Source of the DNA: Narcine bancroftii
Taxonomy: Eukaryota
Length of the DNA: 64,000 nt
NCBI RefSeq assembly: GCF_036971445.1
Contig: NC_091472.1
Coordinates: forward strand, 250,170,001-250,234,000
Direction: 5' to 3'
Both the position numbers and the translations under genes were made by a program. The notes below the pieces were generated by a model. That model was not told the origin of the DNA, ran no database searches, and worked only from the letters and a program-made list of their open reading frames with translations. Positions 28,550 through 64,000 of the stretch are shown here, piece after piece; position 1 is the stretch's first letter; every line of letters begins with the position of its first letter.

Positions 28550-29623
28550 TCAATAGTATAAAAGTTGACATTCCTTTTCCAGCAGTCCTTTAAAAACATC
28601 ATAATGGTGATTAAGATCTTTTCTTGTATGTATTTTATATTTAGTTCCCAATGCTCCATCTGGGAAGGAGGTTGCATAAAAAACTCTGTGTATTCTGGAA
28701 TGTACCAATGCCATTGCACACATCACACAGGGTTCTCTGGTAACATACAAATCATACCCAGTGCATATGTAAGGCAGTCCATTTGCCTCAGTTTCTTTTG
28801 GAATATGGTCATCTAACAGATGCAAAGGTTTTGCAATGCTGATTGCATCATAACCTAGAAAAAGTTCTGCAGATGTAAAATTGCACTTCGGATACTTGTT
28901 ATGATTAAAAGCACCACCTCCTTGCCGATAAGCAACCTGATCAATACACACCATAACTGCATGAAGCAAAGGATTTAGTCCATTTCTGCAGTCATGACCT
29001 ACAGCAATTATACTGTCAGATGCTGGATTAACTATTACAGCACCAACTGGTTCCATCCCCAATTCTTTTCCTGTTTTTGCAACTTCAATGGCTTTCTCCA
29101 TAAAAGCCTGCATCTTTGCTTTCTCTTCAATATTAAATAGCTGGCCTCTGAGGGCTTCTGTCATTTGCTTGTTTTCATGGAACGATGTTGGCCAGTGCTG
29201 GCTAGCAACTTCAAATTGCAGTCTCGTCAATGGTTGGTGTGCAGGTATCTTGACCAAAAAAGGTTCTCCAAGACCAATGACATCAATATTTCCTTCTGGA
29301 AAGAGCCCACTAAGAGTGACTTCTCCGTTTAGTGCACCTGTGTCATTCAAATCACTAAGTAGGCAAATAATAATCTCTAAAGGATGATTACTTTTCTTCT
29401 CCCTGCATGGTCGTACTCTCTTGATGTGTGGGAGAGTGCTTAATGGATAGACATCAGCCAGACGTTTGACAAGAGTCGCTGTTTGTTTTTTATTGATAAT
29501 GGGGGCTGCATATGCTTCCAGAAATTTAACTTCACAAGACTTCTCGTCTGAGAGTACGGGCATCAGCTCCCAAGTGAAAGAGCCAAATGTTTCAGTTTTT
29601 CTCTTTTTGCACTGTGGCTCCAT
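28550..29623 (-). CDS. ADAT3: tRNA adenosine deaminase 3 (non-catalytic subunit of ADAT2/3, I34), single coding exon
   Basis: 357 aa with LPHIKRVR, WPTSFH, the pseudo-active-site HAVM (Val replacing catalytic Glu), YICTGYDLYVTREPCVMCAMALVHSRI and DGALGTKYKIH..DLNHHY. Kozak context ACCATGG. Confidence 0.95.
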   Translation of the reverse strand: MEPQCKKRKTETFGSFTWELMPVLSDEKSCEVKFLEAYAAPIINKKQTATLVKRLADVYPLSTLPHIKRVRPCREKKSNHPLEIIICLLSDLNDTGALNGEVTLSGLFPEGNIDVIGLGEPFLVKIPAHQPLTRLQFEVASQHWPTSFHENKQMTEALRGQLFNIEEKAKMQAFMEKAIEVAKTGKELGMEPVGAVIVNPASDSIIAVGHDCRNGLNPLLHAVMVCIDQVAYRQGGGAFNHNKYPKCNFTSAELFLGYDAISIAKPLHLLDDHIPKETEANGLPYICTGYDLYVTREPCVMCAMALVHSRIHRVFYATSFPDGALGTKYKIHTRKDLNHHYDVFKGLLEKECQLLYY

Positions 29624-29739
29624 GGTATCTTCGACCTCAGATTTGGGGAAACAATCAAGGCCTCAGTTCTGTCAAAGGTCTTCGCTCTGCAACATGAACT
29701 GTTTCTCTTCCAACAGATGCAGAGTCATGCACGTTTCGA

Positions 29740-30176: not shown

Positions 30177-31790
30177 TGATCTTTTCCCTATCGTTCATAT
30201 TGATCACTATTACTGATGTAATTTAAACCTTAAAGTAAAACTCTAGAAGACAACAGCACAGTACAGGCCCTTCAACCCTTGAATATTGTGCCAGCCTATA
30301 TATTCCTACCAAAAATATTAAACCCTTCCTACCTTATAACCTTCTACTTTCATCCACAAGGTTGACGAAGAGTCTCTTAAATACCCCTAACGTTTTAGCC
30401 TTGGGAGGGGTTCTGTTTTTTTACAAGCAGAGAGGAAAGAAAACAGGATTTCTCTGAGAGACAGTGTGTGTAAGAGAGAGAAGGTGTTCTTTGAGGCTGC
30501 ACATGGCAAGCTGGCAGGCTTTTTGAAAATCCCATTTTGAAGACGGGTCGTGAGTTCTGAGTTCAGCCTGTTGTAGTTCTTACAAGACGAAATGGATGGC
30601 TAGAGTGAACTTTGGGAAACAAGAGGAACTCTGTGGTGGCCTGGAAGAATAGGTTATCATTTGGAAAACTCATGATAGGGCAAGCTTCTTCAGCAAGACA
30701 ATGAAGTGGCTGATTGGAGGAAATTAGTTTGAGTGTATCCAATGAGCCACAAATATCTCTCTGAAACCAACAAGAACTTTCCTGAGCGGTTACCATTTAG
30801 CTTTAAGTACCAGAGCCAGGTGAAAATTCATAAATGTTAAATTCTGTGCACAGTATAAGAATTGCCTGATATTGGTGAATTTGGAGAAGTGATCTTTTCC
30901 CTATCGTTCATATTGATCACTATTTCTGATGTAACTTAAACCTTAAAATAAAACTCTAGAAGACAACAGCACAGTACAGGCCCTTCAACCCTTGAATATT
31001 GTACCAGCCTATATATTCCTACCAAAAATATTAAACCCTTCCTACCTTATAACCTTCTACTTTCATCCACAAGGTTGACGAAGAGTCTCTTAAATACCCC
31101 TAACGTTTTAGCCTTGGGAGGGGTTCTGTTTTTTTTACAAGCAGAGAGGAAAGAAAACAGGATTTCTCTGAGAGACAGTGTGTGTAAGAGAGAGAAGGTG
31201 TTCTTTGAGGCTGCACATGGCAAGCTGGCAGGCTTTTTGAAAATCCCATTTTGAAGACGGGTCGTGAGTTCTGAGTTCAGCCTGTTGTAGTTCTTACAAG
31301 ACGAAATGGATGGCTAGAGTGAACTTTGGGAAACAAGAGGAACTCTGTGGTGGCCTGGAAGAATAGGTTATCATTTGGAAAACTCATGATAGGGCAAGCT
31401 TCTTCAGCAAGACAATGAAGTGGCTGATTGGAGGAAATTAGTTTGAGTGTATCCAATGAGCCACAAATATCTCTCTGAAACCAACAAGAACTTTCCTGAG
31501 CGGTTACCATTTAGCTTTAAGTACCAGAGCCAGGTGAAAATTCATAAATGTTAAATTCTGTGCACAGTATAAGAATTGCCTGATATTGGTGAATTTGGAG
31601 AAGTGATCTTTTCCCTATCGTTCGTATTGATCACTATTTCTGATGTAACTTAAACCTTAAAATAAAACTCTAGAAGACAACAGCACAGTACAGGCCCTTC
31701 AACCCTTGAATATTGTACCAGCCTATATATTCCTACCAAAAATATTAAACCCTTCCTACCTTATAACCTTCTACTTTCATCCACAAGGTT
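30177..31790. repeat. 714-bp tandem duplication, ~2.3 copies, near-identical
   Basis: Identical 77-aa ORFs at 30563 and 31277 (offset 714). Units start TGATCTTTTCCCTATCG at ~30177, ~30890 and ~31604. Confidence 0.93.
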
Positions 31791-34850: not shown

Positions 34851-35381
34851 CATGCCAGAATTACCTCGTTCCTAAGTAAAGACCTGGACCCACTACAATT
34901 CGTCCACAGCAGATGTAATCTCATTGGCTCTCCACTCAGCCCCAGATCATCTAGACAACCGCAACATCTATATCAGGGTGGTTCTCACTGATTACAGATC
35001 AGCTTTCAACATTTCAGTACAGGTCAGCAAGCTGCAAAACCTGGACCTTTGCACCTTCCTCTGCAAATGGATCCTTGATTTCCTCATCAGAAGACTTAAA
35101 GTCAGTGTAAATTGGTAACAATAGCTCTTCCTCACTGACAATCAACACAGATATACCTCAAGGATGCATGCTTCTCCCACTGCTGTACTCTCTCCACACC
35201 CATGAATGTGAGGCTAGGTAGAATTCAAATGCCATCTACAAATATGTCCATGACACCACAGTCTTCATCAGAATCACAGGTGGCAATGAGGAAGTGAGAT
35301 AGATCAGCTAATTGAGTTGTGGCACAACAACATTGCACTCAACATTAGCAAAATTAAGGAACTGATTGTGGACCAAGAGGG
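34851..35381 (+). mobile_element. Rex1/Babar LINE, left part (split by the ERV)
   Basis: YIRVVLTDYRSAFN, LCKWILDFL and LNISKIKELIVD; the sequence resumes at 43334. Confidence 0.85.
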
Positions 35382-36192
35382 TGTTGGAATCTAGGGGTTA
35401 AAACAGTATGAAATAAATGATTAATTAATAAGTGTATATTTACTGCATGGTTCAGGGAAAAAGGAATGTGATTAAGTGGCAATCACAGCATGGAGCAAAG
35501 TTGGCTGAGCAAAATTGTCTGCTCCAAAATACAGGGAGAGGAAATGCATAAAACGATTTAGGAGGAATGCTCAAACTAAAGGAGGTGGTGAGTAGCACAG
35601 GAGACACAGGCCAGATCAGAACAAAGAATGGCCTGCAAGAAACAAAGGGAATGGAAAACCAGTCTAGGAGGAAGATTAAGGCAGGGGGAGGTGTTAAAGA
35701 GAACAGCAGAAATTGGCCGGACAAGAACAGAATGGTGATTAGAAATATCTGGGGATGAATTAATTTCTGATCAACACAACAGGATAGTCTGGCCTGGAGG
35801 ATTAAGATGGGAGTGCTACACCCCAGATATCTGCAAAACAGGAGGTGACTTGTGATAACCCTTATGCAAAAAGATCTAGCAAAGGAAGACAACTTTTGTT
35901 CTGTATGATAATGAAATCTAGCAAAGGAAGCCAACTTTTGTTCTGCATGATAAGGTTGATCTATATAAACTGAGCCAACTGGACAATAGGGGTCAGTCTT
36001 GGGGAATAGCTCACTGTGCAGGTGACCTATGAACTAATGACTGACCCAGAGCTCTGTTAAGTTTTATTCTTGTGCTGTGTAATAAATTGACTGTTGAACC
36101 GAATACCTTCTCCTATCACTTCATTCAAAGAACACGCTGGACTCAGACTACACATAGACTAAATTAAGAGTAAGGTAAAGCCAGAGTCCGAC
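35382..36192 (+). repeat. ERV LTR, inverted copy (U3 outward, U5 fused to integrase)
   Basis: TGTTGGAATCT...GAGTCCGAC. TATATAAA at 35962, AATAAA at 36081, 42-bp direct repeat 35874-35953. Reverse complement of 42523-43333 with one mismatch noticed (35845 G vs A). Confidence 0.95.
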
Positions 36193-39100
36193 TTGCATCC
36201 CATTGAGCTTACCTCATTCTTCGTAGTCTGAATTTCGGCTCCCGGTCCTGGAAACTGGTGCCCTGTTTGTAGTTCATATGGAGTAAATCCTGTCACAGAA
36301 CTTACCAAACTCCTTATTGACATTAATGCCAGGGGCAACGCATCCACCCAATTTAGTTTGGTCCGTGCTTGTACTTTCCCGATCTTACCTTTTATTGTTT
36401 GGTTCATCCTCTCCACTTTCCCTTGGGATTGCGGATGGTACACCGTTCCAAAGGCATGTTTCAATCCCAACATTGCTTCTACCTCCTGTAGATCGTTATT
36501 TTTAAAATGACTTCCATTATCAGACCTAATTTTCCTAGGAAATCCGTGTCTCGGAATGTACTGGTTGATCAGGAATTTACATACCATCCTTGCATCTTCT
36601 CTTTTGGCAGGGATTGCCTCCGGCCACCCTGTGAACACATCTACTGCTACTAAGAGGTATCGATAGCCACTTACCCTCTCAATCATGTCCGTATAATCAA
36701 GTACGATTTCCTGCCCTGGTAACTTAGGTAATGGGAACTGTCCTTCATGTGGCTTTACAGTCGCCTTTACATTGAAAGTTATACATACCTCACACTCTCT
36801 AATATGGTTCTCCACCATCGCCGGCAGGAAGGGGTGCCACCAATGTATCAAGTACCTTATCATCTGCTTCTTTCCACAGTGTGTTAGCCCATGCGCCTCC
36901 TCGAGGAGGGGTTTCATGAGTCCAGATGGTAAAACTGGCCTCCCGTCTATCGATCTCCATAGTCCTTGATCCTTGGTTGCCCCCCTTTTCTCCCATACCA
37001 TCCTTTCCTGAGGTGATGCCTTTGCTTGTTCCTGTATTATTACTTCTACCCTACACGGTGGTAATAAGTCATGTACTGTTCTGTCTGCCTGTATCATAAT
37101 AAACTGAGGGCCGTATCCTGCTGCCCTTTTAGCGGCCATGTCCGCTTCCTGATTTCCCCGAGCCACCATCGTATCTGTTCTATCATGTCCTTTACATTTA
37201 AGAACTGCTAATGCCCTTGGTTTCAGGAGGGCCTCAGCCAGTTTCCTAACGTCCTTCTCGTGTTTAATTGGGGTCATTGCTGCTGTTAAAAACCCACTTC
37301 TAATCCATTGACTAAGTTCAACCTGTATTGTCCCTACCACATATGCCGAGTCTGTATATATATTGACCTCATTCCCTTCTGCCCATTCTAATGCTGCTAT
37401 CATTCCCTGTAGTTCTGCAAGTTGTGCTGACTCCTTTCCTCTCACTGTCCCTGTAATGATTTCTTCAAATCCTCCTGTAGTTTTTCGTACCACCGCATAG
37501 GCAGCTTTCAATCCATCTGTGGGGTGTCTGTAACAACACCCATCTGTAAATAAGGTTTCATCTGGTTCTCTTAAGGGTGTAGCCTGTAAGTCAGGTCTTA
37601 TTTTAATATCCTTTACTACCCTCTTCTCACAACAGTGTGGTTCTCCCTCTCCCATATTGTCTGCCATGTTAATGCCTTCATGGGTAAATGTAACATTTGG
37701 AGTATTCAGGATCTTTTCTAGTCTCGTCTGCCTTAGTGAAGTCATTGTACATGCTGTCGAGCTCACAAATGCTACAATGCTATGTGTTGTTAATACCGTC
37801 AGGCCATGTCCCATTACTATGTGTGCCACCTTTTGTAAAATCTTTGCTACTCCTGCTGCATGTCTCGTACATGGTGGGTGTCTGTCTTCCGTTGGGTCTA
37901 GTGTGATACTCACATACATGAGCACACATCTTCCACCCCCTTTTTTCTGAAAAAGAACACCATCGATTGTGTGTGCTTTTTCAGAAACATCCAAAAAGAA
38001 AGGCAGTTTATAATTTGGAATTGCCAAATCTGTAGCTGTTGTAAGAGCTTGCTTCAATAGAATAAAACTCATCTCAGCCTGTGCAGTCCAATCAAGTGTA
38101 GCTCCCAGATTCCTCATCCCCTGCTCATTCACCAAAGTTCGCAGTGGATGTGTCAACTCACCATACGATGGGATAAACTGCCTACTATAACCTGACAAAC
38201 CCAAAAACGAAAGCATTTCCTTAACTGTCTTTGGTTTTGGATGATGTAGTATCGCTGTTCGATGTGCAGGGGAAATCCCTGTGCCTTTCGCTGAGACCAT
38301 TCTACCTAAAAAGGTGACCACCTGTCTGCAGCATTGCAGCTTTGAGCGAGAGACTTTAAAGCCTGCCTTGAACAGCTGCACTAGCAGGAGACAGGTGGCC
38401 TCCAAACAGGAGATATGATCAGGTGCTGCTAATAGGATGTCATCTACATACTGGATCAGAACTACCCCACCTGGCAGTGCTAGCCCCCCCAGCTGTTCTT
38501 TCAACACCTGATTGAAAATCCCTGGAGATAAGATAAAGCCCTGCGGAAGCCTAGTATACCGCAACTTTCTACCTCTATACGTGAACGAAAACACATCTCT
38601 TAATGGTTCTGCCAGCGGCAAGCAAAAGAAAGCATTCGCTAAATCTATGCAAGAGAACCACTTGTGGTTGGGGGTTAAAGCAGTCATGGCAGTATATGGG
38701 TTTGGTACTGGAACTGTGGGTGTTCTCACAATACCATTGATGCGCCTTAAGTCATGGGACATCCGATATTTGCCCGTGTCTTGTTTAGGAACAGGTAAGA
38801 TGGGTGTATTCCAACTAGAACGCGAATGTTCCAACACCCCTGAATACATAAGGCCATCAATGGTCTCTGCCAAACCTTCCTCAGCTTCAGGTTTGTTGGG
38901 ATACTGCATCTGCCAAATAGGGGTGTAATCTGACAGTTCGAAGGTTATGGGATCAATCTGCTGACAAAAACCCACATCTGCTGATCCCACTGACCACAGG
39001 TTCTCAGGGAGAGAATCTAGCATAGGGGCTGAGTCGGGGTGATCCATCTTCTCTCTACCATGAAAGCGTTCAATCTGTCTATGCTCAAGGAGGACTTGAT

Positions 39101-40022
39101 CATATGTCGGAGACAAAATTCTGTATGCATGACCAGATGAGGAGAACTGCACTGTCGGTATTTGGGTGTCAGACCAGTCACTAAGGGACCTCAAGTTCCG
39201 ACACATCGGTCCCAATTCTTTTGCCTGGTGAGTAGTGCCAATTGCAAGGGTGACATGAGGAATGGCCTCACCTGCCATCTCATACCATTCCAGCTGTTCA
39301 GATGTCAGTGCCACCGTAGCGGCCACTCCCTCCTTTCCTACCACTATGTAGTCCGAATTAATTTCCCATAGCATGCCCTCTACCTCTTCATAAAAGGCAT
39401 GCTGATACATTTCATCCCCATCCCTATCGTAAAAGAGGGTCATATGGGGAGGGTCCGAGGGAGGGGTATACGGGTGTAACGTCTGGATCCACGGCTTCCA
39501 TTGATTATAAAGCTTTAGCAGCCCTCCCTTCTGTGGGTCCTCTGTTTCCAACAGCCCCCAGTAAATGTCAGCCCATTGTCCCTCAGACGTGGATCCTCCA
39601 GCTGCCGCCAACAACATCTTAGAACCGGAATGAAGTGTAGTTACTGAACAGTTCATAGAATATCCATTTGGAAAGGTGACCTCTATTCCGCTGGGTCCAC
39701 AAAGGATCGATGCTCCGCACTTGACCAACAGGTCTCTGCCCAAGAGATTGGTAGGGCACCTGGCTGACAAAATGTATTGATGTGTAAAAGTCTGTCCCGC
39801 CACAGAAGTGACTAGTGGTGTAGAAAACGGCAGATTTTCTGGTGTACCCGAGAACCCTATCAGCTGGACGCTAGAGGATGATGTTTTATCTTGAAACTCA
39901 GCGCCAGTAAGTGTTGAAAATCTGGCTCCCGTATCCACTAAAAAGGATACTTCCATGTCCATTACTTTAATCTGCAGGAAAGGGTCTGCCAACCTAGCCT
40001 GCTCGTGGGTGCTCGGGCTCCG
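36159..40022 (-). CDS. pol: ERV Pol: protease - 2H phosphodiesterase-like - RT - RNase H - integrase (C-terminally truncated at 36193; last 10 aa come from the inverted LTR)
   Basis: FLVDTGA and LLGRDLL (PR); HMTL and HVTL; LPQGF and QYVDDILL at 38439-38450 (RT); FTDG, SAQLAEL, YTDSAY, GNQEAD (RNase H); HHCC, SDNGSHF, HPQSQGKVERMN (IN). Open for >1270 codons. Confidence 0.95.
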   Translation of the reverse strand, partial: RSPSTHEQARLADPFLQIKVMDMEVSFLVDTGARFSTLTGAEFQDKTSSSSVQLIGFSGTPENLPFSTPLVTSVAGQTFTHQYILSARCPTNLLGRDLLVKCGASILCGPSGIEVTFPNGYSMNCSVTTLHSGSKMLLAAAGGSTSEGQWADIYWGLLETEDPQKGGLLKLYNQWKPWIQTLHPYTPPSDPPHMTLFYDRDGDEMYQHAFYEEVEGMLWEINSDYIVVGKEGVAATVALTSEQLEWYEMAGEAIPHVTLAIGTTHQAKELGPMCRNLRSLSDWSDTQIPTVQFSSSGHAYRILSPTYDQVLLEHRQIERFHGREKMDHPDSAPMLDSLPENLWSVGSADVGFCQQIDPITFELSDYTPIWQMQYPNKPEAEEGLAETIDGLMYSGVLEHSRSSWNTPILPVPKQDTGKYRMSHDLRRINGIVRTPTVPVPNPYTAMTALTPNHKWFSCIDLANAFFCLPLAEPLRDVFSFTYRGRKLRYTRLPQGFILSPGIFNQVLKEQLGGLALPGGVVLIQYVDDILLAAPDHISCLEATCLLLVQLFKAGFKVSRSKLQCCRQVVTFLGRMVSAKGTGISPAHRTAILHHPKPKTVKEMLSFLGLSGYSRQFIPSYGELTHPLRTLVNEQGMRNLGATLDWTAQAEMSFILLKQALTTATDLAIPNYKLPFFLDVSEKAHTIDGVLFQKKGGGRCVLMYVSITLDPTEDRHPPCTRHAAGVAKILQKVAHIVMGHGLTVLTTHSIVAFVSSTACTMTSLRQTRLEKILNTPNVTFTHEGINMADNMGEGEPHCCEKRVVKDIKIRPDLQATPLREPDETLFTDGCCYRHPTDGLKAAYAVVRKTTGGFEEIITGTVRGKESAQLAELQGMIAALEWAEGNEVNIYTDSAYVVGTIQVELSQWIRSGFLTAAMTPIKHEKDVRKLAEALLKPRALAVLKCKGHDRTDTMVARGNQEADMAAKRAAGYGPQFIMIQADRTVHDLLPPCRVEVIIQEQAKASPQERMVWEKRGATKDQGLWRSIDGRPVLPSGLMKPLLEEAHGLTHCGKKQMIRYLIHWWHPFLPAMVENHIRECEVCITFNVKATVKPHEGQFPLPKLPGQEIVLDYTDMIERVSGYRYLLVAVDVFTGWPEAIPAKREDARMVCKFLINQYIPRHGFPRKIRSDNGSHFKNNDLQEVEAMLGLKHAFGTVYHPQSQGKVERMNQTIKGKIGKVQARTKLNWVDALPLALMSIRSLVSSVTGFTPYELQTGHQFPGPGAEIQTTKNEVSSMGCKSDSGFTLLLI

Positions 40023-41526
40023 TCACTGTGGGCAATATTGCTCCTCCTCTGTCAGCAAAGGGAATTGTCTCTTCGGAGCTAGAGCCGCATAGGGTGCCTG
40101 ATGTACTGGGGGTGGCACTGACGATCTCTGGGGCTGGACCCAATGCTCATTTTGTGGTGGTCCATATCCCCTTCTCCCAGTGTCCCGAGGATCCCAAGCT
40201 AGGGGGCAGTCTCTCTTCCAGTGTCCTGGCTGACCGCATACAAAACATACGGCTGGTTGCATTCGTGGAGCACCCCGACCTCTCCCTCTTACTCGGAATC
40301 CCCCCATTGGACCTCCCATTCTGGCCACATAGGTGGGACATAGGTGATGGCTGCGGTGGCTGCTGAATCATCTGGTTCGCACCCTTTGAGGAAATCTTTT
40401 TTGCCTCGTTTGCCTTTTTCCTAGCCTCTTCCAATTGAAGCTTAAGGAGTTGCACTTGTGCCGACTCCGTAGTTTGTTTGTCCTCCTTTTGCTTAGCCCT
40501 GTAACGTTTCATGTGATGGGTCAAATGTTTTTCCCATTGCTCACTCGAGCAGCCAGGAATATCAGGGTTGTTCTCTAATGCTTCCCTAACTACAGCTGGC
40601 AGTCCGCTCGTTACTGCAGCCCTAAAGAGTGTAGTCTGCAAGGGATCTGTGGCTGGGTGTACTCCTGCTTTATCCGTCCAACTCTCCTTACACTGACTCC
40701 AAAAGGTCAAGATCTCCTCATCCTCTGACTCCTTTTGTCTATTGTGAGGAGTGGGGGTGGTGTGATCCTCTGACATTCCTACCGAGAAGGCTTTCTCAAG
40801 TGTCTGTTCTTGCTCTCTCTCATTTGTATATCCCAAGCCCCTACTATTTTTCCTTACTGCACATCTATCGTTCTGTACTTCGTGCACCCACTCTTTTGTT
40901 TCCTCCACTCTCTCCTGCGTAACTCTCTTCAGTCTCTCCTTCGCCTCATGTAGTTCTGGACCTGTTAACTCAGTGACATTCACTATTCCCTCACTTATCT
41001 GCATCGCTGGCATTTGGGGAATAGAATAAGGTGGTGGCAATGTCTCCGGTAACTCTGGATATAACGGGGCTGACGGCTTCACCTCCCCCGTATTCTCCTT
41101 AGTGTTATGGGATCCCTTTTTAATATCATGTTGAAGGTTCGCTTCCACAGCCATGCAAGCCAATGTCATAATGTGTAAATCTGCCCTTCTCTGTTCCTTC
41201 ACTTCTCTCTGTTGTTTAAGCCTTCTTCTATTCCATATAGATCCTTGTCCCTTTGCCTCATGTTCCTGTACCTCCTTGGCTGCTTCCCTCTCTGCTTCTC
41301 CTAAGTACAGTACCAGCCGGATTTTTTCAAACCCTCGTGGTACCTTCCCCTGACTCTGCAGCTCTCTCCATATCTGTTCGTACCGTGCCATAGCCTGTAC
41401 CTCCTCTCCCTTCGGTAATCCTCCCAGTAATTGATTCCTTGTTTTTTCCCACTGTTGGTTTACAGATGGGGGAACTCCTCTGTCTTCCCCGAGCTCTTGC
41501 CCTACATCCCTATTTACTCCTTCCAT
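40023..41526 (-). pseudogene. gag: ERV gag, frameshifted near 40330-40370, single CCHC zinc knuckle
   Basis: ORF 41526..40147 has a PSAP/PPPY late-domain region and a capsid-like C-terminal part. The overlapping frame carries RGRGRG and CFVCGQPGHWKRDC and ends in TGA, in frame with pol. Confidence 0.85.
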
Positions 41527-41649
41527 CTCTGTTCTGATTTTTAACCCTTTAGACTTTGTACTTCACTGGGTCTCTCCCCTGGTAGGATTTTGACACCCTG
41601 CAATATACTTCGTCCCTTCCCACGTTATTATGAACACCAGCAGCACACT

Positions 41650-42025
41650 ACACACGATCCTTAAACAAATACTTATTATAAACTATTATGATACACTAGA
41701 CGATTCCTAAACAGATACTTATACACTATAGAAACAAATAACTATAAAACAATGCACCTTATACAGATACTGATTATACACTACTATGGTATACGATCCT
41801 TAATCAAATACTTATTACACACTATAGAAACAAATAACTATAAAACAATGCACCTTATACAGATACTGATTATACACTACTATGGTACACGATCCTTAAT
41901 CAAATACTTATTACACACTACAGAAACAAATAACTATCACAATGCACCTTATACAGATACTTATACACTACTATGGTACACGATCCTTAATCAAATACTT
42001 ATTACACACTATAGAAGCAAATAAC
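41650..42025. repeat. ~91-96-bp tandem repeat (~3.5 copies) in ERV leader
   Basis: ACGATCCTTAATCAAATACTTATTACACACTA recurs at ~41793, ~41889 and ~41980. Confidence 0.9.
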
Positions 42026-42081
42026 CATCACCATACACCTTATTCTAATTGGCCAAGTGTCTAAACCTATCTCTCGAGATC

Positions 42082-42313
42082 TCTACGAGGGGACTCCAAC
42101 CCCGTTCTACTAGGAGGACTCCAACCCCCTTTCTACTAGGAGGACTCCAACCCCCTTTTTACTACAGGGGACTCCAACCCCATTCTACTAGGAGGACTCC
42201 AACCCCCTTTTACTACAGGGGACTCCAACCCTGTTCTACTAGGAGGACTCCAACCCCCTTCTACTACAGGGGACTCCAACCCCCTTCTACTAGGGGGACT
42301 CCCAACCCCCTTT
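42082..42313. repeat. Nine ~24-28-bp tandem units in ERV leader
   Basis: Unit CTACTAGGAGGACTCCAACCCC / CTACAGGGGACTCCAACCCC. Confidence 0.92.
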
Positions 42314-42500
42314 TGTTTTATTCTTTGGCTTTAACGAGGACTTTTGCAGAGTAGTGACAACACACAATTTATCTTTGCCAATAGCAGAACTTCGTTAAAA
42401 TAGGCGTCTGCTTACCTCCCTTTGTAGGATGGTCACTTGTTGTTATCACCACAATCGACCGGTGTTTCGTATCTTTTTTTTCCGTCACTTCTCCATCTTC

Positions 42501-42518
42501 ATCACGTCGGGGTCACCA
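42501..42518 (-). promoter_or_regulatory. Primer-binding site, tRNA-Trp
   Basis: The - strand TGGTGACCCCGACGTGAT lies 3 nt after the LTR terminal CA and is complementary to the 18 3'-terminal nt of vertebrate tRNA-Trp (same PBS as avian leukosis virus). Confidence 0.92.
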
Positions 42519-42521
42519 AAT

Positions 42522-43333
42522 TGTCGGACTCTGGCTTTACCTTACTCTTAATTTAGTCTATGTGTAGTCTGAGTCCAGCGTGTTCTTTGAATGAAGTGAT
42601 AGGAGAAGGTATTCGGTTCAACAGTCAATTTATTACACAGCACAAGAATAAAACTTAACAGAGCTCTGGGTCAGTCATTAGTTCATAGGTCACCTGCACA
42701 GTGAGCTATTCCCCAAGACTGACCCCTATTGTCCAGTTGGCTCAGTTTATATAGATCAACCTTATCATGCAGAACAAAAGTTGGCTTCCTTTGCTAGATT
42801 TCATTATCATACAGAACAAAAGTTGTCTTCCTTTGCTAGATCTTTTTGCATAAGGGTTATCACAAGTCATCTCCTGTTTTGCAGATATCTGGGGTGTAGC
42901 ACTCCCATCTTAATCCTCCAGGCCAGACTATCCTGTTGTGTTGATCAGAAATTAATTCATCCCCAGATATTTCTAATCACCATTCTGTTCTTGTCCGGCC
43001 AATTTCTGCTGTTCTCTTTAACACCTCCCCCTGCCTTAATCTTCCTCCTAGACTGGTTTTCCATTCCCTTTGTTTCTTGCAGGCCATTCTTTGTTCTGAT
43101 CTGGCCTGTGTCTCCTGTGCTACTCACCACCTCCTTTAGTTTGAGCATTCCTCCTAAATCGTTTTATGCATTTCCTCTCCCTGTATTTTGGAGCAGACAA
43201 TTTTGCTCAGCCAACTTTGCTCCATGCTGTGATTGCCACTTAATCACATTCCTTTTTCCCTGAACCATGCAGTAAATATACACTTATTAATTAATCATTT
43301 ATTTCATACTGTTTTAACCCCTAGATTCCAACA
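42522..43333 (-). repeat. ERV 5' LTR (812 bp)
   Basis: The - strand TGTTGGAATCT...AGAGTCCGACA has imperfect 11-bp terminal inverted repeats; TATA at 42746-42753 and AATAAA at 42629-42634 on -. Confidence 0.95.
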
Positions 43334-43976
43334 AGGGGGAAATCAGAATACAAACCAGTCCTCATCAAGGGGACCCCAGTGGAAAGGGTAAAGGACTTTA
43401 ACTTCCTGGGTGCCAACATTTCTGAAGATCTATCCTGGGGCTTTCATGTCAATACAGTCATGAAGAAGGCTCACCGATGGCTCTATTTCATTTGGAGTTT
43501 GAGGAGATTTGGTATGCCACTAAAGACTCTTGCAAATTTGTTCAGATGTATTGTAGAGAGCATTCTGACTGGTTGCATCACTGTCTGGTATGGAGATAGC
43601 AATGCTCAGGACAGGAAAAGACTACATTGAATTGTGAACTCAGCCACCACCATCATAGGCATGAGTCTGCACTCCATTAAGGACATCTAGAAGAGGCATG
43701 CTTCAAGAAAGCAGCCTCTATCATCAAGGACCCTCACCAGCCAGGCCATGCTCTCTTCTCACTGTTACCATCAGGAAGGCCTGAAGATGAATGCTCGATT
43801 ATAGAAAAATAGCTTCTCTACCATCATATTTCTGACACAACCTTACTTTTTCTTTTATTATGCACTAATTTATGTATTTTTAAAAATGCAAGTTATAGCA
43901 ATTTTTACTCCTGTAGTGTTGCCACAAAATAACACATTTTGTGACATGTGTTCATAATAATAAATTCCGATTCTGA
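43334..43976 (+). mobile_element. Rex1/Babar LINE, right part with 3' tail
   Basis: VERVKDFNFLGANISEDLSW...FRCIVESILTGCITVWYG; ends AATAAATTCCGATTCTGA. Confidence 0.85.
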
Positions 43977-44849: not shown

Positions 44850-45076
44850 ATATATTTACGAATCTGGCGACGAAATTAGGAGGAATAATTTAACGAAGGC
44901 GGAACGTTTCGACGGCCTCTGCAGCGGGGAACAGGCAAACGGGAACACAGACGAGTCCTACCCTTGTGGAGGTCCGGCCAGACGAGATGCGATCGTCTCG
45001 CTGCGAAGCGGCCCAGGAAAGGCGTGCACTCGCTCGCTGGGTTCGGAAATCGAACCTTGACCCGGTCTGCGTTGCC
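44850..45076 (+). promoter_or_regulatory. CpG island / 5' region of OSGEPL1
   Basis: CpG-dense stretch running into the first coding exon. Confidence 0.65.
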
Positions 45077-45270
45077 ATGACGATGCGTTGTCTCCGCGTT
45101 CGCGCTCTGAGTTCGGTGGCTGCCCGTGGGCTCCACGGCCACCCGTGGCGCGAGCCCAGCGTGGTTCTGGGCATAGAAACCAGCTGCGATGACACTGCCG
45201 CGGCGGTGGTGGCCGAGAGAGGGCGCGTCTTAGGAGAAGCCTTGCATTCTCAGAAAGAAACTCATCTGAA
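45077..45270 (+). CDS. OSGEPL1: OSGEPL1 (mitochondrial t6A synthase, Kae1/TsaD/Qri7 family) coding exon 1
   Basis: Arg-rich presequence MTMRCLRVRALSS.. followed by VLGIETSCDDTAAAVV; donor AA|GTAGGT. Confidence 0.92.
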
Positions 45271-46499
45271 GTAGGTGAAAATACTTGCACCAGTTATGAT
45301 TCCGGGGCTGACATTTGCAAAGTAAATTGTTTTAATTCTGACAATCTTGCTTCTCGTTTACTTGCATAGAAATTCAAGCACAACAGAGAATGCTGGAAAC
45401 ATTCAGCATGTTGAGAGATGGTCAACTTAAAAACTAAGGGTTTTTTTTTTGCCAGTTGCTGTACTGTATTTCCCTTGATACTTGTAAGCCAATGTTAAAT
45501 TGTTTTGAAACAATAAAACACAATTCTGTAAAATAATTCCAGGAATAAGTAACCATTTCACTTGGCTTATTGCCTTTTGATAATCCCCTGTTATATATGT
45601 TATGCTCAACATAATGTGAAAATTAACATTATTGGGTTAATTTCTAAGTTAACTTCTAAGTTAACTTGGTTAACTTAGACGATTTATTACAAAATAAAAT
45701 AGGTTTGTATGTGATTCACCTTGAGAAAACGTGGAAATTTTAGACCAATGTATGCAAATCTGAAAAGAATTTCTCATTATCAGAAGGAAAAAAAATTCAC
45801 ATCCTTCAACTGATAGATACATTTTGGATCACGAATTTCCTTCTGAATATTTCATAAGCAGAAGGTGTTTTGCAAAGCAGATTTTGGAAACTACGACAGG
45901 AAAGTCAATCGCATAAAGCAGGGTTACAAACCTGAAACATTGGCCTTCCTCCAGTGTTTTATTTTGCTCCCGCATCTTCAGTCACGTGACATTTGAATTG
46001 AAACGCACACATGCCACTTTTCTCTTTTATCAATACAGACCATCCCAGATTAACAAATGGATTTCACTTTTTACAGATGTCATTAAGTCGGATTTATCCA
46101 AAAGTCAGAAAATTTTCAAAAAAATCACCCATACCTTCATTTATTTATTGTAGTAAATAGCATCAGAAGTGTTAAAAGCCCGTTAAGAAAGAACAATGAC
46201 TGAAAATGGAGCAAGAGAGGAAACTACTTCTCCATTCATGGACTTTTAAATTTAATAATGTGAGGAAAACTTTTATGTAGAAGTGTCCAGAAACTGGGCA
46301 TTCATAACATGGGGATTTGCTTGTAATAGTTAAAGTGCCAGTGACATCCACATGGCGTGAAAAATCAAAGATTCCAACAAATGTCTTTACCTTTGTGTTT
46401 TAACTGAAAAAAGGAAGAATAAGTATTTGAGTATTTTATTAACTTATAAGTCAGAAATATATATATATATCAAACAAATATATATTTGTTTTGTTTCAG

Positions 46500-46887
46500 G
46501 ACAGGTGGAATTATTCCACCTGTAGCTCAGAGGCTACACAGAGAGCACTTGGACAGAGTAGTGAAGGAAGCTATGGATAACAGTGGAGTCTCCCTTAATG
46601 AACTCACGGCAATAGCAACTACAATAAAACCAGGTCTTGCTCTAAGCCTACGTGTTGGCCTAGAGTACAGCTTAAAACTAATAGAACAATACGAGAAACC
46701 TTTTATTCCTATTCACCATATGGAAGCCCATGCACTGACCATTAGAATGCTGCAGGCGGTAGAATTTCCCTTTCTGGTCCTGTTGATCTCCGGTGGTCAT
46801 AGTTTACTTGCTGTTGTCCGTGGAGTCGATGACTTTCTTCTTCTTGGACAGACATTGGATGAAGCCCCAGGAGACACATTGGACAAG
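46500..46887 (+). CDS. OSGEPL1: OSGEPL1 coding exon 2
   Basis: TGGIIPPVA..PGLALSL..PIHHMEAHAL..LLISGGH..GDTLDK|GT; 388 nt. Confidence 0.96.
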
Positions 46888-48072
46888 GTATGTACTGAGG
46901 GAAAGCTTAAAATCAGCAATGAAAAATCAGCTGAATTTTAACAGTATTTATTCAAGTCACATCTAAAAATCCAAGGACCAGGAACAAAGTGTACATGTTA
47001 AGCCTCATCTTAATGTAATAATACTGAAAATATTTTGAATTATCCAGTGGATTAATTAATATTGTAAATCCCAAAATTCAAATAATGAATTTTTATTTAA
47101 AAATGCATTATCAGATCATTATAATTTGTACTTTAAAATTTTAAAAAAGGATATACTGTACATGAAATTGTAGGACTTATGAAAGCATATTAATTTATCA
47201 TTAAAATTTTCAGTCTTGTTATCTTATATGTTTGTTACGTTTCTGCACTGGAAAAAGCTGAGATTATTAAAACTTTCAACACAATGAAAAAAAGTATTAA
47301 ACCTGAAATTCAATTTTATTATCATCCGATTGCACAAGTACAATCTGACGAAGCTGCGTTCTCCAGTCCTCGGTGCAAAACACGCAGACACAGAACCAGA
47401 CATAGCACACATACAGTTAAACAATACATATGCAGGACAAATTAAACATAAAATAAATAGATTTAGTTTAGTTAATATAAGAGTTTCGGATGGATAGTGC
47501 AAGCAAATGCTTTGGTTCTTCAGCATTCTCACTGCCCCTGAGAAGAAGCTGTTTCTCGGCCTGGCGAGGCTAGCTCTGGTATTCCTGTATCTCTTTCCCC
47601 AAGTCAGGCTTGATGTACAAACAATTACAACATCAGTCATATAATCAATTAACCAAAGACACTGTTTTACTTTTCATACACTTATTTTTTTACAGTAATG
47701 TCATAAGATGGTTATAATATGATGCTGCCATGAAACACCAAATTTCATGACTTGTTCATGACAAAAAATTCCGATTCTGAAACAATTGCAACTTCAGTCA
47801 TTGCAAACACATCACCTCATGCATTTGTCTTAGATTTTATTATAGATAATAAGGGAATAGTTAATTAGTTATAAGTGGAATTAGATCCATTTTACTGATC
47901 TCTTAATAGCCAAATTTCGCTGTTTACGGCAGAGCATTAAAAAAGTTCTGCATGAACTGTGCAAAGTCTCAATGGTGAAGGAATGTTGTTTCAGGTTAGA
48001 GGGATGGCCATTTAGGGTTGAGGCAAGGAAGAATTTTTTTCTCCAAGAGTGTTTCAATAATGAAGATATTTA

Positions 48073-48554
48073 GCCTTTATGATGCCTTTATGCATCGAGT
48101 CCACGCTGCTGAAGATCCAGCTGCGCTGGGTGGGTCACGTCTCCAGAATGGAGGACCATCGCCTTCCCAAGATCGTGTTATATGGCGAGCTCTCCACTGG
48201 CCACCGTGACAGAGGTGCACCAAAGAAAAGGTACAAGGACTGCCTAAAGAAATCTCTTGGTGCCTGCCACATTGACCACCGCCAGTGGGCTGATATCGCC
48301 TCAAACCGTGCATCTTGGCGCCTCACAGTTTGGCGGGCAGCAACCTCCTTTGAAGAAGACCGCAGAGCCCACCTCACTGACAAAAGGCAAAGGAGGAAAA
48401 ACCCAACACCCAACCCCAACCAACCAATTTTCCCCTGCAGCCGCTGCAACCGTGTCTGCCTGTCCCGGATCGGACTTGTCAGCCACAAACGAGCCTGCAG
48501 CTGACGTGGACTTTTACCCCCTCCATAAATCTTCGTCCGCGAAGCCAAGCCAAA
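48073..48554 (+). mobile_element. Young 5'-truncated RTE LINE with 11-bp TSD
   Basis: Nearly identical to the 63345+ copy; TSD GAAGATATTTA at 48062-48072 and 48555-48565. Confidence 0.9.
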
Positions 48555-49354
48555 GAAGATATTTAAAATATAAATAGCTTGGACAAACAGAACCAAGGAT
48601 ATGATGGAGGGTGAGGGTGGTTCGGCAGAAAGTGGTCGAGGTCAAAGGCAGATCAGCTATGATTTTATTGATTGGCAGAGCAGTGCTTGAGGTGGAGTAG
48701 GCTGAGGTAAAGCAAGCTTCGACAACAATTTCTCATTTCTTATGCAAACACACGCTTCCAGTTATCTAACCATCTCTTACTCATTACGCCTGGCATGCAT
48801 AAGAATGTACATTTGAAAAAGTTTATATAATTTTTATCTGTGAGATACTGATGTCCTACCACAGGATTCAAAGCTGCAGAAGATTCCGTGCAAGCTTCAG
48901 TCAGAAGGAAAACACAAAACAAATGAATTAAAAAAAAATCAACTTTGTGTTTTGCTGAATCTGAGATCTTAGACTAAATTATCAAAGTATTTTTTGCAGG
49001 AAGTTCACATGCAGTTGTTCTTGGTTTATTCATTGATGAACTGATGTGTATTTGACTGCAGCCAAAAATATTGAGGAAATATGGGAGGAGTGAACTTGGA
49101 TGTTGATTTGTAATTGAGTTTACTCAGTTTTTGGATGTTTTTGGAAACCAATATTTACCACTAAATATATGTTTCTAAGTGATAATTAGTCTTTTAATTG
49201 TTCAAGAGTAGTTTATATAAATAAATACTTTCAACCATTTTTAAATGTTTCTAAAGATCAGAGCTGTTTGGAAACAATTCTAAGGCTTTTTAACATAATA
49301 AGTGAAGGCAGTTTTTCTGATAATAGTGATTTTAAACCATTACACTCTTTGCAG

Positions 49355-49559
49355 GTGGCAAGGAGACTGTCGCTGAAAAATCACCCAGCTTGCTGTACAA
49401 TGAGTGGTGGTGAAGCCATTGAATATTTGGCCAGAACGGGAAATCGATTGCATGTTGAAATAACACAGCCCATGAGCCGCCACCTGGACTGTGATTTTTC
49501 CTTTTCTGGTCTCCGCAATCAGGTCAATCAAATAATTATCAAAAAGGAAAAGGAAGAAG
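49355..49559 (+). CDS. OSGEPL1: OSGEPL1 coding exon 3
   Basis: CAG|VARRLSLKNHP..MSGGEAIEYLA..CDFSFSGL..KEKEE G|GT; 205 nt. Confidence 0.93.
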
Positions 49560-49649
49560 GTTTTTTGGTCTTTTATATTTTTACTTTATGTGGTTCAATT
49601 CTGATTCATTTTCGTACTCTCTATAAGTTGCATATATTTCTGTAAGCAG

Positions 49650-54575: not shown

Positions 54576-57500
54576 TCTTGCCCAGCGCGCGCCTGGAGCA
54601 GCGATTATGTTGTCACAATGCACGAAGTGACTGAGCACATGTTGCCCTTAAAAGAGCGGGTGCTGAATTTGAATAAAAACAGTCATTAACAACTTTCAAT
54701 GTGGTGGCTGAGTCTTTCTTGGCTGTGTCCAGCACTACATTGGTGACCCCGTTGAGCCCAGATGCCTCTCTGGTCTTAAGAACATGGATCTGGCAGACAT
54801 CAACACTGTTGCCATCAAACCTCCCCCCTTTTGGACCCATTGCTCGCGTACGTGGTTCGGGCAGGTGGAGGTGCAGTTTCAACTGAGGAACACTTCAGCA
54901 GACGCCACGATGTTCTACCACATCATGAGCGCACTGGACAAAGAAATGGCAGCCAGGGTGGATGATCTAATACACAACCCACCAGCCAAGGGTAAATATC
55001 CTGCCCTCAAGAACCTGGTCCTTGGAACTTTCGGGCTCTCCCCTCAGCAGCGTGCCTCCAGGCTCCTGCATCTCGACGGGCTTGGGGCCCTCACACCATT
55101 GGCCCTAATGGACGAGATGCTGGCGCTAGCGGAGGATCACAAACCTTCCCTATTCCGTTAGATCTTCCTCGAGCAGAGTACATCTACAGGGAACACTGCC
55201 GTCGGTGGGCAGCAGCAATCATTAAAGACCTTCACCACCCAGCACATGCTCTGTCCTCTTTGCTGCCATCAGGAAAGAGGTCTAGGTGCCACAAGACTCA
55301 CACCACTAGGTTCAGGAACAGCTGCTACCCCTCCACCATCAGACTCCTCAATGACAAACTCAATCAGAGATTCATTTAAGGACTTACTTGGGCTGGGAAG
55401 CGCAAGATTGCAAGTGCCGACAAATGTGTGATTACCAGGGGAAACGACCCGGCCAGCCACCATTGATGGCTGTACAGGAGCGGAGCTGAGCGTCCTGCCC
55501 CCCACCACCCTTGAGACATGCATCCGATCTTGTGGTCCCAACCTGCGGGCAGACAACGGTTCCGCCATCAAGACCTTCAGTATCCGCAGGGTGCAGATCC
55601 AGATCGGGAAAAAGAAATTCAGCTGGAAGTTCGTGTTAGCCTCACTGGGTACTATGTTGTTAGGAGCCGACTTCCTGAGGGCACACGGACTGTTGGTCGA
55701 CATGAAGGGCAAGAGGCTGGTCAACGCTTGCACCTTCCATTCGGTGCACCTGGATGCCACAAACACCTGCAGGCCCAAGATCACCGCCATCGCCACTTCC
55801 AGGGATGAGTATTCAAACATACTCCATCGGTTCCCCACCATCCTTCAACCATGATTCAGTACCATCTTACCCCAGCATGGAGTATACCACCATATCTCCA
55901 TGCAGGGCCCCCCACTGCACACCAAGCCCAGATGACTTCCGCCCGAGAAGGTGCAGCTGGCAAAGAAGGAGTTTTCCCAGCTGCAGGCATTGGGGATCAT
56001 CCGTCGCTTGGATAGTGCCTGAGCTTCCCCTCTCCACATGGTCCCCAAATCCAACAGGGACTGGAGATCCTATGGTGATTACCAGCATTTGAACGATGCG
56101 ACCACACCGGACAGATACCCGGTTCCACACATTCAAGACTTCTCAGCCAATCTCCACTGTGCGCAAGTCTTCTCCAAGGTCGATCTGATGCGGGGGTATC
56201 ATCAGATCCCGGTCCACCCCGAGGATATCAGCAAGACAGTGATCATCACCCCCTTTGGCCTCTGAATTACTGTGTATGTCTTTTGGCCTCAAAAATGCGG
56301 CTCAGACTTTCCAGCGCCTCATGGACGCAGTGGGTAGGGACTTGGACTTTGTGTTTATCTACCTGGACGATATCCTTATCGCCAGCCACAACCGCGAAGA
56401 GCACAAGCCCTACCTCCGTACCCTGGTTGCTCATCTGGTGGAGTTTGGCCTCACGGTCAATGTGGCCAAGTGCCAGTTCTGCAAGCAGATACTGCAGTTC
56501 CTGGGGCACACCATCTCGGCAGCAGATGCTGCCCTGGCGCCAGAGAAGGTCGCGGCCATCCAGTGGTTCCCCAAGCCAATCACCCTCAAGGGCCTGCAGG
56601 AGTTCGTGGGGATGGTGAATTTTTATCATCAGTTCATCCCTGGCCCTCCCCGCGCCATTCGACCACTATTCACGTTGATCGCCAATAAGGAGAAAATCTT
56701 GACCTGGTCGGAGGCCCTCGCCAGTGTAACTCTATTGGTGCACCCACGCCCGGTGGCACACACAGCACTCTTGGTGGATGCCTCAGCCATGGCAGTAGGG
56801 GGCGTACTCAAGCAATGGCTCAACGGACAGTGGCACCCGCTGGCTGCCTTTAGTAAACAGCTGTGCCCGCCGGAGCTCAAAAACAGTGCTTTTGACCGGG
56901 AGCTCCTGGCGCTGTACCTGGCCATCCGGCACATTTGATTCTTTCTGGAGGGCAGGCCCTTCATGGTGTTCATGGACCACAAGCCCCTCACACAGGCACT
57001 CACGATGGCCAAAGATCCGTGGTCGGCTTGCAGCAACGCCACCTCTCCCACGTGTCGGAGTTCACCACCGACATCCGGCACAGGGCAGGCAAAGACTGTC
57101 ATGGCAGATGCGCTCTATCATCTGGTGATCAACCCTCTTGCCCCTGGCCTTGACTACACACAGTTGGCACAGGCCAAGAACTGGACACAGAGACGCAGGC
57201 TCTCCGGATCGCCATCTCTGGCCTCGAGCTCCAGGACTTTTAGCTGCCCAACAGCCCGGACACGCTGCTTTGCGACGTCTCCACCAGCTCACTGTGCCCG
57301 GTAGTCCCACCGCAGTGGAGGTCGAGGGTTTTCAGCTTAGTCCATGACCTAGCCCACCCCTCGATGAAGACTTTGGTGCGAATAGTGGTAGAGCGGTTTG
57401 TTTGGCACGGGCTCAAAAAGGAGGTGGCCATTATGACGAGGAACTGCACTAGGTGCCAGGCCTCCAAGGTCCACCGGCATACGCAGACCCCAATCCAGCA

Positions 57501-63344: not shown

Positions 63345-64000
63345 CAATTCTTTTTTCTTTCTTTCTTCTTTCTTCTTTGGCTTGGCTTCGCGGACGAAGA
63401 TTTATGGAGGGGGTAAAAAGTCCACGTCAGCTGCAGGCTCGTTTGTGGCTGACCAGTCCGATGCGGGACAGGCAGACACGATTGCAGCGGTTGCAAGGGA
63501 AAATTGGTTGGTTGGGGTTGGGTGTTGGGTTTTTCCTCCTTTGCCTTTTGTCAGTGAGGTGGGCTCTGCGGTCTTCTTCAAAGGAGGCTGCTGCCCGCCA
63601 AACTGTGAGGCGCCAAGATGCACGGTTTGAGGCGTTATCAGCCCACTGGCGGTGGTCAATGTGGCAGGCACCAAGAGATTTCTTTAGGCAGTCCTTGTAC
63701 CTTTTCTTTGGTGCACCTCTGTCACGGTGGCCAGTGGAGAGCTCGCCATATAATACGATCTTGGGAAGGCGATGGTCCTCCATTCTGGAGACGTGACCCA
63801 TCCAGCGCAGCTGGATCTTCAGCAGCGTGGACTCGATGCTGTCGACCTCTGCCATCTCGAGTACCTCGACGTTAGGGGTGTGAGCGCTCCAATGGATGTT
63901 GAGGATGGAGTGGAGACAACGCTGGTGGAAGCGTTCTAGGAGCCGTAGGTGGTGCCGGTAGAGGACCCATGATTCGGAGCCGAACAGGAGTGTGGGTATG
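63345..64000 (-). mobile_element. Young RTE LINE (runs off the window)
   Basis: ORF 63427..63855 is near-identical to the other two RTE copies; GAA-rich tail. Confidence 0.92.

Follow-up and report, generated by a model that had tools for sequence, protein, structure and literature searches.

Autointegration joins the processed CA end of retroviral DNA to internal viral DNA, as described in the available part of PMC2644782, and in the opposite-strand (inversion) autointegrants of MLV and HIV-1 a sense LTR is joined through its U5 end to antisense internal sequence, as it is in the element described here. However, the autointegrants in the available text of that source (PMC2644782) are non-productive circles with an intact CA, whereas the present element is chromosomal, is bounded by an outer duplication and lacks the A. 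A second likeness is to defective proviruses of HIV-1 and HTLV-1 that carry inversions or asymmetric LTRs and are likewise integrated products of faulty reverse transcription combining inversion with deletion. In living infections two classes of HIV-1 provirus with inversions make up 1.3% each (n=1 each), for which intermolecular strong-stop transfer has been proposed, according to the accessible portion of PMC9278108; the corresponding figure for HTLV-1c is 1.9% in the accessible portion of PMC13427564. Those portions do not describe the inversions as two-U3 proviruses, and the defective proviruses they cover retain ordinary 5' and 3' ends. The element here is germline. HIV-1 and HTLV-1 assays, whose primers are set for direct LTRs, would probably miss a two-U3 provirus.

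A foamy-like endogenous retrovirus of the guppy is said to have an inverted LTR (PMC5210030, available text), but it belongs to another retroviral class, and its ends, duplication and mechanism are not stated in that text. In the literature searched this brief remark is the sole reference to a fish ERV with an "inverted LTR", and the search yielded no described two-U3 provirus and no case of integrase using two U3 ends inside cells; concerted insertion of two separate oligonucleotide ends by integrase in vitro is reported in the accessible part of PMC5329712. DIRS retrotransposons are likewise reverse transcriptase elements with inverted terminal repeats, but they rely on a tyrosine recombinase, their repeats are not identical and they contain an internal complementary region (PMC7192593); the present element instead combines a DDE integrase core with near-identical LTRs and a target duplication. 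Pfam scanning of three element frames gave no recombinase family, the integrase core being present, and the LTR matches only the two arms, the matches of the internal region being confined to its leader repeats. With neither recombinase nor internal complementary region, DIRS membership was rejected.

The 64-kb stretch of DNA analysed here, referred to as the window, contains an element (Table 1) whose two LTRs form an 811-nt inverted repeat (35382-36192 / 42523-43333). The copies are identical at 810/811 positions, the sole mismatch (35845/42870) being a transition, and the last base of the 5' LTR is the only base absent from the left copy; LTR divergence is 0.12% (95% interval 0.003-0.69%). 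Both outer ends are U3 ends of the TG...CA type, and when flank duplication lengths of 2-8 were compared a direct match was found at 4 only, two 4-mers from the window being expected to match by chance in 0.5% of cases. The inverted-LTR anatomy of the element is confirmed: the first-pass annotation had taken the left repeat as the reverse complement of the 5' LTR rather than a direct repeat, both outer ends as U3, and AGGG as present on both flanks, and the sequence of both arms and flanks agrees in each respect. The element thus has the TG...CA outer ends and the direct target duplication of 4-6 bp (here 4) of an integrase-made provirus, but not the one U3 and one U5 end with direct LTRs.

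Table 1. Features of the two-U3 element and its host site (positions in the window)
Feature	Position	Strand	Remarks
Decayed host LINE, left part	34854..35377	+	from flank alignments
Target-site duplication, left copy	35378..35381		AGGG
Inverted LTR	35382..36192	+	U3-R-U5 rightwards; complete except terminal A
TATA box	35962	+	inside inverted LTR
Polyadenylation signal	36081	+	inside inverted LTR
Inner join	36192..36193		U5 end minus one base, tail-to-tail with pol, inside codon 1277
pro-pol	36193..40022	-	1276 codons without stop
Insert between protease and reverse transcriptase	39030..39599	-	two HxT motifs, 2H-phosphoesterase-like
In-frame UGA between gag and pro	40023..40025	-	context UGACGG
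gag	40026..41526	-	one CCHC zinc knuckle
Leader, ~1 kb	41527..42500	-	tandem repeats of ~26 and ~96 nt
Primer binding site	42501..42518	-	3 nt past the LTR's CA
5' LTR	42522..43333	-	812 nt, TG...CA, imperfect 7-nt terminal inverted repeat
Target-site duplication, right copy	43334..43337		AGGG
Same LINE, right part	43338..43778	+	collinear with left part

The sequence is that of a ZFERV/SSSV-like endogenous retrovirus of class I, a known virus type. It shares with that group the order LTR-PBS-long repeated leader-gag-UGA-pro-pol, and the UGA context is similar to the UGACGA of ZFERV and the UGAAGA of SSSV (PMC13517186). gag and pro occupy one frame split by the UGA, which is a probable read-through site. 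Protease, a 2H-like insert, reverse transcriptase, tether, RNase H and the zinc-binding and core domains of integrase follow in the retroviral order with a separate tether domain, and RVP, RVT_1, RT_RNaseH_2, RNase_H and rve all scored above the Pfam cut-off. The candidate phosphodiesterase-like insert resembles that reported for some epsilon-like fish ERVs (PMC4977317). It scored below the cut-off in Pfam (E 0.025 and 0.12), had a feature score of 0.96 to phosphodiesterase clusters with a recognition value under the tool's threshold, and matched no solved structure among PDB sequences (best E 0.12). The primer binding site is presumably that of tRNA-Trp. No tRNA genes were found in the window, and Rfam gave three matches over 35000-43800, all far under the gathering score. 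A frame change at ~40330-40370, absent from the first-pass account, interrupts gag.

Relatives occur in teleosts, bamboo shark and electric ray, the closest named ones being from electric ray, with 86-91% amino-acid identity over matches that fall short of the break; no protein match bore the name ZFERV or SSSV. A search of a phage collection gave no match, as expected, and exact look-up of three translation products found 0/3, an uninformative outcome since their start sites were guessed. Unlike the ZFERV/SSSV-like layout, the second LTR is inverted here, and the window lacks the integrase tail, env, a PPT and a 3' LTR. pol breaks after the integrase core, ~90-110 residues short of its relatives; tblastn of the last 100 residues of six named relatives to the window gave 0/6 hits, all three env-bearing relatives matched it over pol-like parts only, and neither env, PPT nor a direct 3' LTR was found within it, in keeping with the earlier report that the integrase C-terminus, env and PPT are missing.

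One integrase event with two U3 ends, as proposed at first pass, is the simplest account of the outer junctions and the 4-bp duplication. The reading preferred here, with a probability of about 0.7, is that an aberrant two-U3 DNA was inserted in one such concerted event, the inner join having been made without integrase. That the structure is instead an assembly artefact, the true locus having direct LTRs of which one was inverted by the assembler or by a chimeric read, is highly improbable. Short reads cope poorly with two almost identical 811-nt repeats when the family is multicopy, the gag frame change is unexplained, and the single mismatch could be a consensus error; the mismatch at 35845 is indeed present as first annotated, but it is weak evidence against an assembly copy. 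Yet the 64-kb window contains no N, and from the fourth base onwards the left junction is U3 sequence, distinct from the U5 end, so that a simple mis-join cannot account for it. The flanks are unique, collinear and not palindromic, and fold-back chimeras would not be expected to regain the correct host base together with a 4-bp duplication. Compared as reverse complements the flanks do not match, and the structure is therefore not a fold-back of host DNA.

The host site lies in a decayed LINE that has further copies in the window, and each flank was aligned separately to three of these, which are only ~65-80% alike. Placed on the 20.0-kb copy, the flanks share exactly 4 bases; on the 6.4-kb copy the overlap is ~5-7 bases with ambiguous gap placement; in the 16.4-kb copy the site falls within a deletion, so that this copy is uninformative. 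Overlap is thus seen with 2/3 copies and loss with 0/3; the flanks are collinear, and the interrupted LINE does resume across the site, as had been noted. The overlap supports a duplication, short of base-level proof since the copies are ~65-80% alike. The name Rex given to this LINE at first pass is putative, the right flank having been assigned to no Pfam family. A pair of separate insertions, head to head and only bases apart, with deletion of the DNA between them, would also yield two outward-facing U3 ends, but they would need near-identical sites and a chance 4-bp match (0.5%), and the LINE flanks overlap without loss; the probability of such a history appears negligible.

At the inner junction the U5 end lacking its terminal A is fused into the integrase codons, as first described, and a 10-residue LTR-derived tail is appended to the pol frame. 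The join lies 1-2 bases from the U5 terminus, a position with a 0.4% chance if anywhere in the LTR were allowed, and this proximity probably reflects a physical end or nick there. No upstream microhomology of at least 4 nt is found at the join; on the primer binding site side no suffix of at least 4 nt matches, one offset 3-nt match being at chance level. On the LTR side the native bases at the break were deduced from relatives only 65-76% identical, with named hits alone considered (31/114 in one set; 15/187 in a second, with 12 extending to the anchor and 9 alignable over the break). In 8/9 of the named relatives spanning the break the codons of the next residue exclude the LTR-derived start base, which limits overlap to 1 nt, whereas in the remaining one the next residue would permit an overlap of 3-4 nt. 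The comparison with relatives proposed at first pass, microhomology versus a clean CA join, thus allows microhomology of 1 nt at most in 8/9 and no clean CA join, the A being missing. Little or no overlap is typical of non-homologous switching or end-joining. A 9-nt word common to the last 60 nt of pol and U5 was discarded as evidence: 3/88 non-overlapping windows, including the observed one, do equally well, the word was picked out post hoc, and its sense is wrong for guiding a switch.

Insertion of one element into another and collapse to a solo LTR both happen commonly, and an integrase-made inner join that later lost its terminal A might have arisen through them, a second family member entering pol and collapsing to a solo LTR with deletion of the original 3' part, or through opposite-strand autointegration of the U5 end. 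The polarity, sense LTR followed by antisense pol-gag, is that of an opposite-strand autointegrant, a geometry deduced from the available text of PMC2644782. In that text autointegration joins the processed CA, whereas here the CA that integrase would join is incomplete, and autointegration as such, including the single-ended form suggested at first pass, was rejected as the source of the inner join. Later loss of the A would have a probability of ~0.001 or less per site, judging from LTR divergence. After autointegration the second U3 should moreover stay attached to env and PPT, leaving integrase no free end, and the nested route needs three further events. An integrase-made inner join is accordingly very unlikely.

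A further possibility is that a normal provirus came first and that host rearrangement later flipped or recopied one LTR, deleting the integrase tail, env and PPT, by template switching during replication or by breakage and rejoining, in either case via the imperfect 7-nt terminal inverted repeats. The duplication would then be original and explained without two-U3 integration, and the U3 and U5 termini, alike in their outer 3 bases and in 6/7 overall, offer possible microhomology. An unrelated old inverted duplication elsewhere in the window (9499-10546), matching at 430/437 positions, indicates that this genome makes inverted copies without retroviral enzymes. Against this, both new junctions would have to fall a few bases from LTR termini (~0.4% for the inner one), the inner junction has no useful homology to pol, and a single mismatch in 811 leaves little elapsed time. 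Host rearrangement is for these reasons quite unlikely.

Under the preferred reading, concerted insertion of a two-U3 DNA with a non-integrase inner join, we infer the following steps from the observed anatomy. A class I fish retrovirus would have entered the germ line and undergone faulty reverse transcription, plus-strand synthesis halting within the integrase gene. A second LTR copy attached tail-to-tail at the halted point would give a DNA with two U3 ends, both of which would be inserted in concert by integrase brought in with the particle, producing the TG...CA ends and the 4-bp duplication in the LINE. For the inner join, a template switch by reverse transcriptase at the U5 terminus is tentatively suggested, at somewhat less than even odds. 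It is there that the minus strand starts and that strand displacement leaves a nick. The plus strand, once stalled, may have copied an LTR backwards, or plus-strand strong-stop DNA may have primed on sense pol. Somewhat less probable is a co-insertion of two molecules, truncated LTR-gag-pol DNA and a one-LTR duplex, by their U3 ends, after which host end-joining would fuse the inner ends left free, with the loss of one or two bases. This third route was missed at first pass; of the two sources named there, the aberrant reverse-transcription product leads, and single-ended autointegration, with the terminal A missing, is unsupported. Template switching and co-insertion are inseparable from one sequence. 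Either would leave a dead-end provirus with both promoters facing inwards.

Most likely, then, this is a young, broken element in a probable ray genome, a rare mishap involving a known type of virus and formed by two-U3 integration with a non-integrase inner join, and as a single dead locus it is of modest importance. It lacks a PPT, and its RNA would end without a sense-strand R at the 3' side; the canonical strand transfer cannot operate with such an arrangement, and normal self-copying is impossible. The earlier suggestion of a TIR-like element built from LTRs found no backing, there being no second copy of the structure in the 64-kb window and no LTR-derived read-through tail in any of 187 fetched proteins, and spread of the inverted-LTR element to new loci is extremely improbable. 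If reads confirm the locus, it would be a natural germline record of concerted integrase insertion with two U3 ends, for which the literature searched otherwise offered only in vitro work with short ends. The locus also suggests a searchable signature, an inverted LTR pair with TG...CA outside and a 4-6 bp duplication, which would escape LTR finders built on direct repeats and which TIR finders might wrongly list as a DNA transposon. Two-U3 proviruses may even be a recurring integration class, missed by LTR finders and proviral PCR because both presuppose direct repeats, that supplies antisense and long hairpin RNA silencing its own family; this is rather unlikely, but if true the locus would be the first described germline example. 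By prediction, transcription from the left LTR could yield RNA antisense to pol and gag. A sense transcript that extended into the inverted U5/R might base-pair with its own 5' end along ~150 nt, a possible source of small RNA against the family.

Of all inverted repeats in the 64-kb window, the longest is formed by the two arms of the provirus (35382-36192 and 42523-43333; 811 nt each, spaced by 6330 nt). These differ at a single position of 811 (35845/42870), which bears out the first-pass annotation in its claim that the left repeat is the reverse complement of the 5' LTR and that both outer ends are U3. The right arm is identified as the 5' LTR, with U3 at its outer end, because a primer binding site, presumably of the tRNA-Trp type, follows its CA end; the left arm repeats this LTR in the opposite direction. 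Within the 812-nt LTR, the TATA box lies at position 581, the polyadenylation signal at 700. The inverted-LTR structure is real in the assembly, there are no N bases in the window, and misassembly is considered quite unlikely.

Features of the provirus and of the surrounding window
Feature	Position	Strand	Remarks
Left arm, inverted LTR	35382-36192	+	U3 outermost; final base missing
5' LTR, 812 nt	right arm plus base 42522	-	starts TG, ends CA
Primer binding site, 18 nt	3 nt beyond 5' LTR end	-	
Leader, ~1 kb	inward of 5' LTR		tandem repeats
gag	from 41526		frame change ~40330-40370, ahead of CCHC knuckle
UGA stop	between gag and pro-pol		in frame with pro-pol
pro-pol, 1276 open codons			protease, reverse transcriptase, tether, RNase H, integrase core (Pfam profile search)
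pol insert	39030-39599	-	between protease and reverse transcriptase; two HxT motifs
Inverted duplication	9499-9935 / 10109-10546		spacer 173 nt
Deaminase frame	28553-29662	-	intact, 370 codons
Tandem repeat	30177-31790		714-nt unit, ~2.3 copies, 97-99% identity
TsaD/Kae1 family gene	44894-49645	+	exons (Pfam TsaD)
Gypsy-like pol, separate	55993-57856	+	fragmented; reverse transcriptase, RNase H, integrase pieces
Young LINE	205-1728, 48092-48641, 63371-64000		three copies; 3' ends 94-97% identical

The two flanks are halves of a single decayed LINE, show no mirror-image relation, and share a direct repeat at length 4 only (lengths 2 to 8 compared; two random 4-mers from the window match by chance in 0.5% of cases). 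The proposed 4-bp duplication thus stands at that length alone. The proposed clean continuity of the LINE is upheld less exactly: when each flank was aligned separately to three other LINE copies, they overlapped by 4 bases against one and by ~5-7 against a second, the third being deleted at the site. Two insertions would be a most improbable origin of this locus.

The feature that decides the mechanism is the inner join, where the U5 end of the inverted LTR is fused to pol. It is set back from the LTR end by 1 base (by 2, should one base be common to both sides), and since a chance landing within 2 bases has a probability of ~0.4%, the joining probably took place at a U5 terminus that was a physical end or a nick. 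Integrase would have carried out a concerted insertion of two U3 ends. The inserted DNA is a putative product of faulty reverse transcription, with plus-strand synthesis halted inside the integrase gene. At the U5 terminus, the point where the minus strand starts and where a nick exists during strand displacement, the polymerase may have changed templates. We give such a template switch a probability of roughly 40% as the source of the join. Somewhat less probable is that two molecules, a one-LTR duplex and the truncated genome, went in together and had their inner ends joined by the host. Inserting two separate ends in concert is described as routine in vitro in the available text of PMC5329712, and inverted, deleted proviruses are put at 1-3% in living infections in that of PMC9278108 and PMC13427564. 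A normal integration followed by host rearrangement via imperfect terminal repeats is unlikely, and an unrelated inverted duplication in the window (430/437 positions matching) shows that such events occur here. That integrase itself made the join and the A was lost later is less likely still: integrase joins an intact CA (PMC5329712, PMC2644782, as excerpted), whereas the A is missing here, and the chance of its later loss is near 0.001 per site.

The U5/PBS boundary shows no match to any pol suffix of 4 nt or longer. For 8 of the 9 named relatives spanning the break, LTR-side overlap is at most 1 nt, because next-residue codons cannot start with the LTR-derived base (the ninth would permit 3-4 nt), an indirect estimate drawn from relatives 65-76% identical, the closest ones stopping before the break. 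A 9-nt inverted repeat (36143-36151 / 36223-36231) sits roughly symmetrically about the join; 3 of 88 windows do equally well, and it may be chance.

In one protein search, 114 of 1097 candidates reached E 1e-30 or better and, in a second, 73 of 1031 reached 1e-60 or better, nearly all from fish. The closest named relatives belong to the electric ray Narcine bancroftii itself (86% and 91% identity over 443 and 536 residues), followed by bamboo shark (72-76%) and the closest teleosts (67-75%). ZFERV and SSSV share the UGA at the gag/pro position, the ZFERV context differing by one base from that of the provirus (PMC13517186, in part). The pol insert weakly resembles 2H phosphoesterases (Pfam profiles, cluster atlas), its nearest atlas clusters being phage and eukaryotic tRNA-ligase phosphodiesterase domains, and has no solved-structure match; comparable inserts are mentioned for epsilon-like fish ERVs in the accessible portion of PMC4977317. 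Since relatives extend a median 143 residues (31 named hits) beyond an anchor 31 residues before the pol break, ~90-110 integrase residues are missing. None of six relatives' integrase tails matched anywhere in the window, nor was env found there, three env-bearing proteins matching pol-like parts only.

A transcript from the 5' LTR would end in antisense U5-R, whose sense minus-strand strong-stop DNA shares, so that first-strand transfer would lack an acceptor. No PPT lies beside a U3 and a primer site is missing from the left LTR; judged from its sequence, the provirus should be a dead end for replication. Both LTR promoters face inwards. Sense RNA that extends as far as the antisense polyadenylation signal at 36068 could base-pair with its own 5' end across ~150 nt, although termination could come earlier, at another signal (36396). 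Antisense RNA could start from the left LTR, provided that it is not cut off at that LTR's own signal at 36081.

LTR divergence is 0.12% (95% interval 0.003-0.69%). At borrowed rates, 7e-10 per generation from the epaulette shark (PMC10587355, in part) or the 2.2e-10 per year assumed in the available text of PMC4422223, this corresponds to ~0.9 million generations (0.02-4.9 million) or ~2.8 million years (0.07-16), ages that would look too young after conversion between the inverted repeats. The insertion site may still be polymorphic. The left LTR is strongly CpG-poor though the element is young (observed/expected 0.16 vs 0.40-0.43 in gag and pol), a poverty that the parent virus may have passed on.

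Inverted circles, rearranged unintegrated DNA and swapped attachment sites belong to older retrovirology. In a literature search largely outside that older work, no description of a two-U3-end provirus was found, nor, in one set of 17 papers, the phrases "two U3 ends" or "two U5 ends"; such a provirus may well have been described in the laboratory before. The available text of PMC8672886, PMC12789967, PMC11042837 and PMC7192593 describes none, and that of PMC5210030 gives a guppy foamy-like ERV with an "inverted LTR" a single sentence lacking detail. DIRS elements likewise have inverted repeats (PMC7192593, in part); membership was rejected on the recombinase and the internal complementary region. 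The window holds no second copy, the 10-residue LTR-derived extension of the pol frame across the join occurs in 0 of 187 fetched proteins, and within these bounds there is no sign of a mobile family; the provirus is probably a one-off accident. A single dead locus known from the assembly leaves the field as it was; its signature is easily searched genome-wide and would draw a retrovirologist's second look.

Elsewhere in the window, the inverted duplication contains, in arms and spacer, pieces of the LINE family hosting the provirus and resembles the product of an older fold-back or twin-priming event. The tandem repeat, which has an unrelated 31-nt match close by on its right at 32516, is a recent tandem duplication or an assembly duplication. 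The deaminase frame has a cytidine/deoxycytidylate deaminase domain and presumably resembles ADAT3, and the young LINE is taken to be RTE-like. The first exon-like frame of the TsaD/Kae1 gene, which we take to resemble OSGEPL1, begins ~1.6 kb from a U3 end of the provirus.
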